From: Euglena gracilis
Taxonomy: Eukaryota
Reading direction: 5' to 3'
DNA length: 64,000 bases
Assembly (NCBI GenBank): GCA_039621445.1
Contig: CP154954.1
Span: forward strand, 31,954,012 to 32,018,011
Of the stretch, positions 7,401-47,552 are shown in pieces. The notes below the pieces were generated by a model. The model was given only the letters and a program-made list of their open reading frames with translations. It had not been told where the DNA came from and did not search any database. The translations under genes were made by a program, and so were the position numbers. How positions within the stretch are numbered: position 1 is the stretch's first letter; each line of letters begins with the position of its first letter.

Positions 7401-10400
7401 GGAGACACAAGCCCCGGACAGGAAGCGAGGCACGCCGTGTGCCTGGCGAGGGGACCGGCTCAGTGTATGGCCCTTCTTCCAAAAGATAAAAAAAAGTTGA
7501 AGGGTCGTAAAAAGAAGCCGGGGCGGGGCAGGCGACCAGAAATGACTGTTTGTCTGTTTTGTTTTTTGATTGGTTTCTCGAAAACGGAGATGAACAGCGG
7601 ACTCCCCGGGTCCCGCCACAGCTCCCTCCAGCCCGGAGCGGGACCGTCCGGGGGGGGGGGGGCAAAAAGCGGGCCGGCTGAGGGCACTTCCCAAAAAAAA
7701 ATTTGGCCGAAACCCATACCTGGGCCCCCAGCGTGTGACTCCCCCGGGGGGGGGGGGTCCGGCCCCGGATCCACCCACCCCCCAAGGGTCTTCTGACTTA
7801 GAAAGAAGCCGGGGCCCGCCCACCATGGGGTATCGGTTTCTCAAGCTATTCGGACCAAAAGACCGAAATTAATGGACTTTGACCATTTCTTCAAAAAAAA
7901 ATTGCGCACTGCACCGCGTGTTGTCCCCAACAGGCCGAGGGCAAGCCTATAGTCAGGCCCAACATTTTGCCCCAATATTTGCCCCGATTTAGGCCCATTT
8001 AGGCCCGATAGGTTAAAATGGCCTAAAATGTCCGTAAATGGCCCACCCCAGGCTACTTAAAGCCATCTCAGGGCATTTTAACCCATACGTGGAGGTTCTG
8101 AAATCATAATTCTGGGTCGTTTTTGTCCCAAAAAATGCATCATAACGTGTGCAAATCATCACTTGCGGTGCGGACTAAAATTACGGGGACGAAAATTACG
8201 GGAAAATTATGGGAGAAATATTACGGGATAATCATGGGAAACTGTTGATTTTGAAAAAAAGTATATGGGAAAGAAATAATTCCCTTTAAAAAAATCTCAA
8301 TTGTAAAAATGTAGTTCCAGGTGCTTCGGTTTTAGGTTCTTGCTGGAGAAGTTTACTGCCAAAGAACATCAGATCCCCACCATACCAAAAAAACGCAACC
8401 TTGCAATCTGCCATTTGCGCCATTCAAGCTGTTTGACACTGGTTAACATCTTCAGTAGGTCAAAAAATCGTTTCAGGTGTTTGAAGTTGTAAACATATCA
8501 ATAACATTTTGATTCATCATGAAAAATTTTCAAGCCACAAAATTATCTCACTTTAGGACACTTTGGGCCATTTTAAGCCATTTTAATCCATGTTAGGCCA
8601 TATTAGGCCTTTTTGCCTGGTTGCATTGTTTCTGATCAGAAAAAAAGTGCATTGGATTAAATTGGGCATCACAAAGGCAAGTATCCTCACACACATGCTT
8701 GTGCTCACCGACCGGGGGGAGGGGGGTGGGTGGGTGCTATACGGTGCCTGCCCCTAGCAGGCACCCCCCCCCCGGGGTAGGGGTTTGGGGGGTCCCAGAA
8801 AACTTTTCATTGAAAATGGCCTTTTCCGGGCCCCCGGCGCCTTTGGCGCCGGGGTCGGAGGGGGGTGCCTGCTATGGGCAGGCACCCCCCAAAACCCTGC
8901 CCCCCGGGGGGTCGGATGGGGTGCTATGGGGTGCCTGCCCCTAGCCCCCCCCCCCCCGTGGGGTAAGCACCCGACTGAGCACAAGCCTGCTCACACAAGT
9001 GGGCGTTGAATGTGTTTTGTTCATTTGTCAGAGGGGCTGGTTTGTGGGCTGGGAGGCGGCGGCTGAGATGGCTGGGGACTGTGGATTTGGGGATGTAATT
9101 GTTATTTGGGATCAGAAATGGGCCCTGTGGGACTGTGCTTGCTCCTCCGCCATCGTCCGCCAACTCCGCCGTTTGCTGCCCACATCCATAAAAGACACCG
9201 AACTGAAATCTCCACCCGAACGACCCCCAATGACTCCCGTTGCTCACAGAAAAAATGTTGTGCAGCAGAATGTCTCCCATTCTGGACCATTTTAGGAATT
9301 TCAGGCCATTCAAAGTCATTATTAAGGACCCCCCCCCTACAGGGGGTCAAAAATCATTTCAGGCCATTTTGGGTCATTTCAGCAAGTCCTGGCTGGGGGT
9401 CACGCTCACCACAACAACCGGGGCGGGGGGGGGGGGGGGGGGCAACGAGCGGGGGGGGGGGGGCAATGAGCCAGGCGTGGGTAGGTAGCAGACACCTCCC
9501 AAAGGCCGGCATTGGGCCTGACCCAGGGGTAAAAAACTTACAATGACCAGACCCTGGCGGCCTTGATGCCAGGGTTTCTGCAACAGCACCACCGCCAACA
9601 CCCCCCTGGAGTTTGAAAAAATGACAGTTTCACCCTAGCTGCCAAGACTCTCCTCGGGCAGGGGGGAGGCCTTCTTTTTAATCGGATCCTGACTCGCAGC
9701 CCATGAAGCAAATCAGTCATACCCCCAAGGTGGGGGTGTTTCTAGTGCACTGCAGAACAAGGGGGGGGGGACTGAAATTGATGGCCTTCGGGGAAAAAAG
9801 TTGCAGAAAATGGCAGGAAAATTGTGGAAATGGCAATATTGGGAATATGCACACTTCTGCCAGAAGGAACTTGAAAAAAAGTTTCACAATTTTTGTCATT
9901 TTGAGCATTGGTGTATGTTTTGAGCTGTTATTAATTTTTTACAACATAAAAATATTAAAAACACAATTTTTGTTATTTTTGGGGACACACTGACTTTAAA
10001 AAGATGGAATTTGCTGGCTAAAAAAAAAAACGGAAACGGCAAAAAAATTGACGAAAAATTTGACCCCAGATAAAAATCTGGTCCAGGATGCGAAAAAATT
10101 CTAAATAGAAATTGTTTCCCAGCAGAAATCAGGGAAATACCTAATAGATGTCAAGAAATTGCCCGCCGAGAATTTTGGCAGATCTTGCGAGAGAGTGGCA
10201 AAAATAACCTGAATTCTATTGTGAAATGTTCAAGGAACGACTGGAACTCATCTCGTCTGCCATCTCAGGTTGATGCGAAAAAAGTTTCGGAAAGAGAAAA
10301 AACCGAGCATCGAGGATGCAGAAAAATGTGGAAATTGTGGGAAAACTGCAATTGTCGATTCCCCCCCGAAATTTTTATCCCCCCGCAGACAGGGGCTTTC

Positions 10401-13400
10401 TTAAGGACTCCCCCCCCCCCCGGGGGGGCCAGCCTCGGGCTGACAAAAAGGCTGCTGGCTGGCTACGAGCGGCTGGCTGGACACACCCGGGGGATAGGGG
10501 GGGTCTGGGGCTGGAGGGGTGGGCTGGGCTGGGTCGATGAAAAACAAAATTTTCTAAAACCATTTTTGCCTTCTCGAAAATTTGATGGATGGAGCTAAAT
10601 CAAGGTTGGGGGGCTGTGATGAGGAATCTGTGATGAGGAAAAAAAATGCAGGGATAGGTGAGCTGGCAGCCCAGTTGGCTGGCCCGGGCCATCGGCCGGC
10701 TGGCCCGGCCTCCGGCCGGGCTGGACCCAACTTTATTTCACTCAACCCCCCGGGGATGGGGTCCCCTCCAGCTTAAGAAATCCCCTGCCCACCCATTTCA
10801 TTGGTCCGGGCAATCCAACAGCCTTTGGGGACGCTTTAGGACGCCACGTTGGCTACAACAGCCCAATTAAGGGGACAGTGAGCCACCGAGAAAAAAATCG
10901 CCTGAAAAACAGGTGCATTTCACCCAGGTGGAAACCTTTGGGGGGGGTAGTGACTCCCAAAACCTGGGGGATCAGGGAAAGAGGGGCCACACCCATGAAC
11001 TCGATGCGCGAGGGGGAAGGTTGCATTGCTGCAGGACATTAACAGTGCAAATTGGGACGCACGTGCCAATCTGGCCAGGAAATGAATCCACACTGTCGAC
11101 AAACGAGCCTCTTTGATAGATCTGTCCCCATCAAAACTGTATTTACAGCAATAGGAATCAATTCCAACCCATACAGCAAGCACAACCTTGACAAAATTGC
11201 AAGAAACAAAAATGAGACGAAATGACCCAAAAACTGCCGTCCCATTCACTTTCCCCCACCAAACCTTTCCAAAAATTTAGAGGAGCCACCATCCAAGGGA
11301 GGTTTTATTTAGAAACAATGTGCTTCCTGGGTCCGAAATTGAGCAGGCGATAGATGCTAGAATTGCGAAAAAAAATCAATGTATGCAGGAATGTGTGTAT
11401 GTATGTATGTATGTATGTATGTATGTATGTATGTATGTATGTATGTATGTATGTATGTATGTATGTATGCATGCATGCATGTATGCATGCGTGTATGTAT
11501 GTATGTATGTATGGATGTATGTATGTATGCATGTATGTATGTATGTATGTATGTATGTATGTATGTATATATGTATGTATGCATGTCTGCATGCATGCAT
11601 GCATGTATGTATGTATGTATGTATGTATGTATGTATGTATGTATGTATGTATGTATGTATGCATGCATGCATGCATGCATGCATGCATGCGTGCGTGCGT
11701 GCGTGCGTGCGTGCATGCATGCATGCATGTATGTATGTATGTATGTATGTATGTATGTATGTATGTATGTATGTATGTATGTATGTATGTATGTATGTAT
11801 GTATGTATGTATGTATGTATATATGTATGTATGTATGTATGGTGTATGCATGTCTGCATGTATGTATGTATGTATGTATGTATGTATGTATGTATGTATG
11901 TATGTATGTATGTATGTATGTATGTATGTATGTATGTATGTATGTATGTATGTATGTATGTATGTATGTATGTATGTGCCGCCTGGCCCCCCGCCTCCTT
12001 ACATAAAAATGTCCCCTTGGCCCCAGAGTAGACCTATTTTGCGCTTGGTCTGCCGAACTTCTTAACATGCAAACCCCTCCCCAAGGCTGGCCTCACCTGC
12101 AATTCTGGCCCAGGCCCGAGGGGATAACATTTTCCTTCGTCATTTCGCTGCTCTTCATTTTTATTCTGGACTGCATTGGGGGTCCAGTCCAGGAACTATA
12201 TTTTAAGCAAATTTTCTCAAACCTTTAAAATTAGGAACCCCCTCCAGTAGGGGGGGGGGCACCCCCATACCTATACCCTGTACCACCTTATTTCGAAGCC
12301 TGGGTTCGACCCGCAACCCACCACAGCACCACACAAAGCAGAATTCCTTGTGCACCAAAATTTCTGACCTGAAATTCACCATGGCCATATTTGCAATTTT
12401 TGAAATTAAAAAGCAGAAAATTGACATGAATTCGAGACAAATAATTGTTGGTGGACTTGTGTGTCCAGCCAGCACTTATAAATTACGTGTAGCAGTTGCG
12501 AGGAAAGTGTTCCACAAATCGGTGGCCACATATGAATGAGCTTTGATGGAACCGAGCCTGGGGCACGCGGGGGCATAGCATGGTACCAGGGCAATAACAG
12601 GGGTTGAGGGACAGGCACATCACCTCTGGGTTGACAGGCAGGTGCAGGGACACGCCCCCTCAGCCACAGACAGTGAGGAATTGTGGCCTGGGAGCAGGGT
12701 TTGACATGACGTCAAAGGGGACACCAAGGTAAGGGCATAAATTGTACATAAAATCAGATGGGGGTGGTCCTGAACCCCCTACGGTCAAGGGGAGGGTTGG
12801 CAGGGGACCACCCTGGAACAACCCTTTACCCTTTAAAAAGTGGAACGTTCCAATGACTGACGCCTGGCTGGGAACAATACACGGAATAAAAGAACTGCGA
12901 AACCCACAAAATAATGACAGAAAACGGGTGTTTGAATGATTTTTGTTGGACAGGCTAGCCAAGGTCCCATAATTTGTGCTCCTTCTGCAATGTGCACGCA
13001 ATCTTTGGTATTTCGGATGGTCCATCAGTAGCACAAACTCGGTCCAGAGCAAGCACCTCTGGTCAGCCATGCCCTTGGGCCCAGCATCGCCCAGCATCGC
13101 TCAGCATCGCCCAGCATCGCCCAGCATCGCCTTTGGAGCCCTTGAAGGTGTATCTATAATGCTTGCTGCTTTTGCCGCTCTAGTCCACTTTTGGCTACTT
13201 TTGGCCATCTTTGGCTGATTTTTGCCCACTTTGACCGCTTTTTGACCACTTTTGCCCACTTTTGCTGCTTTTTGACCACTTTTGCCCACTTTTGCCCACT
13301 TTTTTTTTTACCACTTTTGCTGCTTTCTGACCACTTTTACCCCACGTTTGCCTACTTTTTGACCACTTTTTGGCCACTTTTGCTGCTTTTTGCCCACTTT

Positions 13401-47466: not shown

Positions 47467-47552
47467 CTCGCAACAGCGATTGACCTTCAACAAAACAGCT
47501 TTTCACCCAAAAAACTCGGCGGCGGGGGGCAGGCCCACTGGGGACCGAATGC

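Follow-up and report, generated by a model that had tools for sequence, protein, structure and literature searches.

The origin of euglenid non-conventional introns and the mechanism by which they are removed have been open since the 1990s. These introns were described by Milanowski et al. (2014, 2016) and their code was given by Nomura et al. (2025; PMC12501133). In Euglena this code reads 5'-N3CDG-/-CH'GN5-6^R (^ marks the cut), and both trinucleotides and the bases inside them pair; in E. agilis non-conventional introns make up 71.8% of all introns (PMC12501133). An origin from MITEs (miniature transposable elements with inverted repeats) has been hypothesized (PMC3935182; PMC4770533; discussion of PMC12501133), and the legend to Fig. 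3D of a review places terminal inverted repeats (TIRs) at +4..+6/-8..-6 together with repeats that resemble target site duplications (TSDs) (PMC11282704). Here we compare with these introns a stretch of 64,000 nucleotides of Euglena gracilis contig CP154954.1 (assembly GCA_039621445.1, positions 31,954,012 to 32,018,011 of the forward strand; ‘the window’ below), which contains five MITE-like elements with exact 8-bp TSDs (A, B, C1, C2 and C3; Table 1) and a transcript whose introns have ends of the non-conventional type. The preliminary description of the window, made from its letters alone, had stated that a transposon origin of such introns was proposed before, and the four papers PMC3935182, PMC4770533, PMC11282704 and PMC12501133 show that this is correct.

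The proposed explanation starts from the spacers of the published code. The 3 nt of N3 and the 5 nt of N5 add up to exactly one copy of an 8-bp TSD, as the preliminary description had pointed out, and therefore a copy in transcribed sequence would be removed scar-free. An insertion at a target T1-T8 would yield T1-8[CAG...CTG]T1-8, the cuts would remove T6-8, the element and T1-5, and the RNA would then read T1-5 joined to T6-8, which is the sequence from before the insertion. The window would be a piece of the nuclear genome of a euglenid-type organism. It would be densely filled with non-autonomous DNA transposons of the cut-and-paste type (MITEs) from at least three families (A, B and C), which would have common termini 5'-CARGC...GCYTG-3' and 8-bp TSDs at nTCnnRnn sites. 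Non-conventional splicing pairs the intron ends and cuts beyond the paired arms, at a distance of 3 nt from the 5' arm and of 5 (sometimes 6) nt from the 3' arm. We consider it probable that 8-bp-TSD MITEs of this kind feed euglenid non-conventional introns. Three introns with repeated flanks would then have begun as insertions, families A and C would be able to generate introns likewise, and the transposase of the elements would be of hAT type. The earlier reading of the window is supported in its geometry, in the type of organism and in the intronic placement of copies; that A and C generate introns, and that the elements are hAT, is unproven. The MITE-origin idea itself is already published; new are the concrete families, the 3+5=8 arithmetic and the links from introns to repeats. 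In the full-text literature, outside which most subscription journals lie, we found no paper that names transposon families of a euglenid, that ties such families to spliced introns or that connects 3+5=8 with an 8-bp-TSD superfamily.

Spliced introns and their flanks

Positions 26001-46000 of the window were compared with two probable RNA contig sets (X15 and X16) and with two raw RNA-seq runs (X21 and X22). Thirteen of the 15 joints that are listed chain short exons between 26520 and 45871 and give 11 intron positions and two alternative cuts (Table 1); 238 further joints lie beyond these 15. The contigs that chain exons have a word depth of 242 (X15) and 112 (X16), compared to 2.4-8.4 for the listed single-piece contigs, and 11 of the 13 joints are also present in raw RNA-seq reads. 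Joint 26520>27838 has 13 and 14 distinct read starts, 40029>40779 is found in two contig runs and with one and three raw-read starts, and 40936>42459 occurs in contigs of both X15 and X16 (148 nt on the shorter side) and in one raw read. Between the alternative cuts 34677>35344 and 34741>35352 a 64-nt exon stretch is kept or skipped, and at 42859>45869 and 42864>45871 the X15 and X16 contigs differ by 3 nt. When the ten inner exons are joined, all six frames contain stops and no long open frame is present, and the transcript may thus be non-coding.

Each joint was tried on both strands, with all permitted slides and with 3' spacers of 5 and 6 nt. For 10 of the 13 joints the register with the longest pairing run lies on the minus strand, where the intron ends pair at +4..+13 with the bases from -6/-7 inward. 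With spacers held to 3 and 5-6 nt, 8.4 of 10 positions are paired on the minus strand and 5.6 of 10 on the plus strand. In the best-fitting register (3' spacer 4-7 nt) a mean of 8.8 of the 10 positions from +4 are paired between the two ends of the same intron; when ends of different introns were combined (110 pairings), the value was 4.5 of 10. The strict code is present on the minus strand at three of the 13 joints, namely 31216-34642 (CGG...CTG, N6), 34678-35343 and 40030-40778, the last with the exact published code and a run of 9 pairs. At 11 of 12 joints the first base of the following exon is a purine. One CAA...TTG intron and one CCT...AGG intron are spliced here as well, and both pairs fall outside the published CDG/CH'G set. 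Since the CAA...TTG intron is spliced, the natural rule seems to be looser than the assayed one. The preliminary description had assumed a euglenid, and at the level of intron type this holds, as the ends of RNA-supported joints pair in the euglenid register, a trait by which euglenid-type splicing is recognized. Intron 38631-39995 (-) carries a perfect 12-bp TIR (CAGTGGTTGGGC) at both ends, and its spacers sum to 10 and its flanks show no repeat.

Repeats at the flanks connect some of these introns with insertions. Among 12 joints at which the flanking 8-mers were examined in the N3/N5 register, four have matches at 7, 6, 6 and 5 of 8 positions (5/8 at 34742-35351, the others in Table 1), and random pairs of 8-mers from the window reach at least 6/8 with a frequency of 0.0066. 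The in-register flank repeats of three introns thus place the cuts between TSD positions 5 and 6. The preliminary description had proposed RNA-seq as a check for excision of exonic A and C copies at this position; cuts in this register are found at these three introns and, among the 15 listed joints, none at the ends of C1 or C2. The joint of intron 38222-38591 reads GT..AG on the plus strand at slide 5.

Two intron termini recur elsewhere in the window. The terminus at 42459(-), which is the 5' end of intron 40941-42462, equals the terminus at 52147(-) in 26/26 bases and starts with the B-type 10-mer CAAGCACCTC; exact copies of this 10-mer occur at six sites in the window, and the two ends of B account for two of them. 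The terminus at 40775(-), at the 5' end of intron 40030-40778, and that at 27059(+) are alike for about 75 nt. In the first pair the likeness starts with the C of the trinucleotide at the terminus (intron +4). In the second pair it starts 1 nt before +4, since the flanks differ from 1 nt outside the terminal CAGG onward. The N3 spacer is otherwise not common to the paralogous termini. A likeness that begins at about +4 and leaves N3 unshared is as expected if the element does not include N3 and N5 and both are target DNA. Intron borders set by TIR plus TSD fit both paralogous termini and the flanks of three introns (7/8, 6/8 and 6/8), and these three spliced introns look like old insertions of related elements. 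The comparison of TIRs with intron ends, which had been suggested before, thus returned two intron termini that are repeat-family termini, one of them with the B TIR 10-mer. A partner end and a TSD for the copy ending at 52147 were looked for in the window and not found. Intron 40937-42458 was also considered as a copy of B itself, which was rejected since a BLAST search of B against the window gave no likeness beyond the terminus; it is a B-like relative instead.

Intact elements and their target sites

Exact 8-bp direct repeats around inverted termini (at least 10 of 12 bases) were sought in the window by a blind scan with a filter against low-complexity sequence. It found 12 candidates, compared to a mean of 0.7 and a maximum of 3 in 30 Markov-resampled windows. 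Five of the 12 are elements A, B, C1, C2 and C3. Another five are by-products of internal palindromes common to the C copies, or to C2 and an A-like piece, and the two others (32703-35534 and 38643-40684) are unexplained and in number within chance expectation. All five elements of the preliminary description were recovered at its coordinates with exact 8-bp TSDs, and their TIRs begin with CAG, CAT, CAA or TAG. The 17-mer of the C end, with at most 3 mismatches, has eight sites against 0.26 expected, a number that none of 100 shuffles reached, and the C copies are 84-89% alike. Judged by these counts and likenesses, family C is a real, moderately old family. A search of metagenomes with the 17-nt C terminus returned 71 loci with one match each, and the best of them agrees at 16 of 43 bases past the seed, which makes these chance hits.

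The duplicated 8-mers have common features. TSD positions 1-3 are CTC in four of four A and C copies and GTC in B, which had gone unremarked before; T at position 2 and C at position 3 are found in all five elements, and position 6 is a purine in all five on both strands. The resulting pattern nTCnnRnn looks like a strong target-site preference. The preliminary description had listed CTCGC^AAC, CTCCC^AGA and CTCAC^ACA as satisfying a Y^R junction on the plus strand, and this is right. The TSD of B, GTCCAGAG, fits the palindromic nTCnnGAn. That CTC belongs to the element and the TSD is 5 bp long can be ruled out, since the left CTC lies 8 nt outside the TIR and is thus target DNA.

With their TSDs, C2 (CAG...CTG) and C3 fit the strict N3-CDG...CH'G-N5^R on both strands, which are 4 of 10 element-strand readings, and the purine at exon +1 is present in 10 of 10. 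From +4 on, 12-17 of 17 positions are paired in the MITEs. In the predicted RNA fold of C2 both TIRs are paired (z -5.6), and none of 100 shuffles folds as well. C1 lies deep inside the spliced intron 35409-38056 and C2 deep inside 42860-45868. Both are intronic passengers, and we class none of the five MITEs as an intron. The earlier statement that the copies are intronic thus holds for C1 and C2, both of which are in the RNA-compared stretch. The suggestion that A and C could be intron generators is supported in principle, by way of the three insertion-like introns, and is unproven for families A and C themselves, of which neither an exonic nor a spliced copy was seen.

Several structural traits were noted in the repeats. 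The interior of B consists of tandem 9-10-mers, and in B-type elements the sequence next to the termini is made up of tandemly arrayed 9-11-mers (CCCAGCATCG, TTTTGCCCAC and GACAAATCCC; 13080-13520, 13800-14280 and 51900-52120). Subterminal palindromes of C-runs and G-runs are found in A, in C and in several introns and are common across families. C1 holds a 153-bp insert (36605-36757) that is not in C2 or C3 and recurs with 89.5% identity at 35701-35853, so that another small repeat is nested in C1.

Table 1. Repeat elements, transcript and introns of the window (positions count from its first letter; ^ marks the cut before the next exon)
Feature	Position	Length	Strand	Remarks
Element A	8694-8989 (with TSDs 8686..8997)	296 bp	+	exact 8-bp TSD CTCACACA on each side; ends CATGCTTGTGCTCA / TGAGCACAAGCCTG
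Element B	13050-14693 (with TSDs 13042..14701)	1644 bp	+	exact TSD GTCCAGAG; ends CAAGCACCTCTG / CAGAGGTGCTTG; perfect 12-bp TIR CAAGCACCTCTG
Element C1	36466-37019 (with TSDs 36458..37027)	554 bp	+	exact TSD CTCTAGTA; ends TAGGCTTTTGCTTAAGG...CCTTAAGCAAAAGCCTG
Element C2	43779-44196 (with TSDs 43771..44204)	418 bp	+	exact TSD CTCCCAGA
Element C3	47075-47466 (with TSDs 47067..47474)	392 bp	+	exact TSD CTCGCAAC
Truncated C relative	41054-41379		inverted	nested in intron 40941-42462
Truncated relative	28322-28479			
A-like piece	54763-54875			related to 3' half of A; 86.7% over 113 bp
Partial B copy	63398-63782			80.5% over 303 bp
Multi-exon transcript	26521..45870		- (inferred)	ten inner exons of 34-176 nt
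Transcript introns, first part	26521-27837, 28014-31119, 31216-34642, 34742-35351			alternative to the last: 34678-35343
Transcript introns, middle	35409-38056, 38219-38588, 38631-39995, 40030-40778
Transcript introns, rest	40937-42458, 42607-42807, 42860-45868			alternative to the last: 42865-45870
Intron with flank repeat	38222..38591 (leftmost cut 38219-38588, slid by 3)	370 nt	-	AAC-CAGCGGTGTC...GACACCTATG-AACCT^A; flanks CACCTAAC / AACCTAAC, 7/8
Intron with flank repeat	40030..40778	749 nt	-	GAC-CAGGCTGAA...TTCGGCCTG-ATTCC^A; flanks GTTCCGAC / ATTCCAAC, 6/8
Intron with flank repeat	40941..42462 (leftmost cut 40937-42458, slid by 4)	1522 nt	-	GGC-CAAGCACCTCCAG...CAGAGTGCTTG-CTGCC^G; flanks CTCCAGGC / CTGCCGGC, 6/8
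Second copy of repeat terminus	52122..52147		-	on its inner side, tandem units that resemble GACAAATCCC
Second copy of CAGGCTGAA family terminus	27059..27135		+

Apart from the repeats and the transcript, the window holds an open reading frame (ORF) of 503 codons at 58300-59808 (-) with a varied, protein-like composition. The 503-aa product matched no Pfam family, and a comparison with proteins of 276-881 aa yielded no homologue at E <= 0.001; the ORF may belong to an unclassified mobile element or be an orphan gene. Rfam at gathering thresholds gave no match in the 64 kb and hence no spliced-leader RNA or snRNA as a marker of the lineage, and a simple repeat is located at 46068-46247. The two listed joints outside the exon chain are an opposite-strand joint between homopolymer runs and a chimera of the repeats C1 and C2. 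Raw RNA reads end in long G or C runs at 30002-30021 and 41442-41461, and 31-70 read starts per run join these two places on opposite strands, which is probably an artefact of homopolymer runs in repeats.

Weighing of alternative explanations

Several results weigh against the proposal that these MITEs feed the introns, and part of them would be expected if the likeness was a coincidence of form. In that case the elements would be ordinary 8-bp-TSD MITEs, the introns would have another origin, e.g. double-strand-break repair or decayed conventional introns, and both the 3+5 sum and CAG...CTG would agree by chance, helped by the need of the host for a terminal helix. Eight of the 12 joints have no TSD remnant, with flank matches of 0-3 of 8 that are at chance level, and paralogues within the 64-kb window were found for 2 of 24 intron termini only. 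Spacings depart from 3+5 at 38631-39995 (3+7 or 4+6), at 42607-42807 (3+4) and at three others (3+6), and the resulting sums of 7, 9 and 10 point either to old indels or to other origins; for intron 38631-39995, the choice is between a cut rule less strict than 3+5/6 and spacers that have gained indels. Moreover, one strain of E. agilis has a new gapC intron with 8-nt direct repeats, which its authors took as a trace of break repair (Milanowski et al., 2016; PMC4770533). Against coincidence speak the flank matches of at least 6/8 at three of 12 joints, where the chance per joint is 0.0066, the intron terminus that agrees with a second repeat copy in each of 26 nt and bears the family B TIR 10-mer, and the likeness of both paralogous termini, which starts at or within 1 nt of +4. 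With this evidence, coincidence appears unlikely. The proposal that MITEs feed the introns has further points against it at the elements themselves. One terminus or both depart from the strict code in A, B and C1 (CAT, CAA/TTG and TAG), and single substitutions in CAG or CTG abolished splicing in a published assay (PMC12501133). Among the 15 listed joints none lies at the ends of C1 or C2, with room for rare removal among the 238 others, and no spliced copy of A, B or C was seen in an RNA comparison that covered 26001-46000 and thus C1 and C2. A long open frame is missing from the spliced transcript, and this locus therefore offers no argument for selection in favour of scar-free removal. As the RNA libraries are unstranded, the minus strand is deduced from the register in which the intron ends pair. 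Finally, X15 and X16 are taken to be RNA by guess only, and a DNA form of the joints is formally possible.

The direction of descent could also be reversed. The repeats would then be mobile introns, and circular excised intron RNA would re-enter the genome by reverse splicing or reverse transcription. Excised non-conventional introns do form full-length circles (cited in PMC11282704 and PMC12621601), and the absence of a transposase from the scanned ORFs of the window would fit as well. However, each of the five intact copies has a different 8-mer exactly duplicated, which is the mark of a staggered target cut, intron copies would carry N3 and N5 of the donor and hence common bases, and C1 and C2 lie deep in introns, away from exon junctions. 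This makes a descent of the repeats from introns very improbable, and we keep to the proposal that the introns descend from transposons. A separate question is to which superfamily these belong, as the link to introns would hold with the hAT label wrong. hAT elements have the terminal motif YARNG, with G at position 5, and the target pattern nTnnnnAn. The preliminary description had called the elements hAT-like, a label that has its sole basis in the 8-bp TSD and the shape of the termini. Like hAT-superfamily MITEs, the elements have an 8-bp TSD in five of five cases, short TIRs that start with CAG, CAA or TAG, and no coding capacity. Their terminal motifs (CAGGC, CATGC, CAAGC and TAGGC) fit YAR at positions 1-3, except for the CAT end of A, and differ in having C instead of G at position 5; nTC at positions 1-3 of the target is also stronger than in the hAT pattern. 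Transposase was searched for with Pfam in 36 long ORFs and in 300 of 306 filtered ORFs (>=75 aa) of the window, and no family scored above its curated cut-off, so that these scans gave neither a transposase nor a recognizable coding exon; the sole listed match was RTBV_P12 (21.8 bits, cut-off 25), within a tandem repeat. The hAT label is therefore unproven, and the missing transposase also counts against the proposal as a whole. Another superfamily with 8-bp TSDs, e.g. P or a Merlin-like one, would account for the C at position 5 (CAGGC, CAAGC, CATGC), for the CATG with which A begins and for the lack of a hAT domain in the scanned ORFs. For hAT speak the 8-bp TSD, the short YAR TIRs and the T at TSD position 2 in five of five elements, which fits one half-site of nTnnnnAn, a point that is weakened by A at position 7 in two of five only. 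Such a different superfamily is possible, but on balance not what we expect.

Wider reading and comparison with known systems

If the proposal is correct, it has consequences for published features of these introns. Direct repeats that make introns ‘slidable’ occur at 84.4% of E. agilis introns (PMC12501133), and a duplicated TSD would account for them, as it would for the 8-nt direct repeats of the new gapC intron (PMC4770533). In a set of 55 introns, purines were found at intron +1 (51/55) and exon +1 (55/55), pyrimidines before the intron and at its end (49/55 each), and A at exon +2 (43/55) (PMC4770533). In the TSD model the purine rule at intron +1 and exon +1, and likewise the pyrimidines before the intron and at its end, would go back to TSD positions 5 and 6, each of which is present twice. 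A target-site preference that is read twice could thus explain the published exon-side consensus, and the slidability of most such introns would be explained along with the purine rule at intron start and next exon start. A far more general version, which we put forward tentatively and regard as rather doubtful, is that most euglenid non-conventional introns are fossils of a single class of 8-bp-TSD transposons. The 3/5-nt cut rule would then remove the element and one TSD in either orientation, and the exon-side consensus would be the target preference of the transposase (nTCnnRnn) read twice and not a splicing signal; further out, the excision factor could descend from the transposon system. 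The proposal gives an arithmetic reason for spacers of 3 and 5 nt and makes the MITE hypothesis directly testable genome-wide. In the E. gracilis assembly 32.73% of the repeat elements are unclassified and DNA elements make up 4.60% of the genome (PMC11252322), and the text available from that paper does not mention introns, hAT or MITEs.

Among known systems, euglenid non-conventional introns are the closest. The introns of the window share with them the +4/-6 register, the strict code at 3 joints and the purine at exon +1 (11/12), and C2 and C3 with their TSDs fit the strict code on both strands. The five intact MITEs differ from them, as no spliced copy was seen among the listed joints of 26001-46000 and A, B and C1 break the trinucleotide rule. 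Diplonemid noncanonical introns have G- and C-rich inverted ends, and an adaptable spliceosome has been argued for them (PMC12621601). Base-paired intron ends and a suggested MITE origin are common to both, but the CAG/CTG register at +4/-6 of the window is the euglenid pattern. Genome size points in the same direction. Fourteen probable DNA runs of one organism contain at least half of the sampled words of 37100-47000, and their contig totals of 1-2.3 billion letters indicate a gigabase-scale genome. This is closer to the published Euglena sizes, i.e. 1.54 Gb for the E. agilis assembly (PMC12501133) and about 2.4 Gb for E. gracilis, the latter derived from 1.4 Gb of repeats that are 58.84% of the genome (PMC11252322), than to the much smaller genome of Diplonema of about 280 Mb (PMC10161547).

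Outside this group, the introners of Micromonas, Aureococcus and dinoflagellates (PMC11282704) offer the nearest parallel. In both cases a non-autonomous TIR element together with its TSD would supply all that is needed for removal from RNA, and intron ends coincide with the termini of repeat families. Introners use GT/AG that are read by the spliceosome, whereas the cuts in the window appear to be set by the distance from a terminal helix. Both cuts would here fall within TSD copies, which makes the element symmetric, and its orientation would not matter for removal. If the proposal is true, the MITEs of this window would be introner-like DNA transposons that feed a splicing system which measures from a helix.

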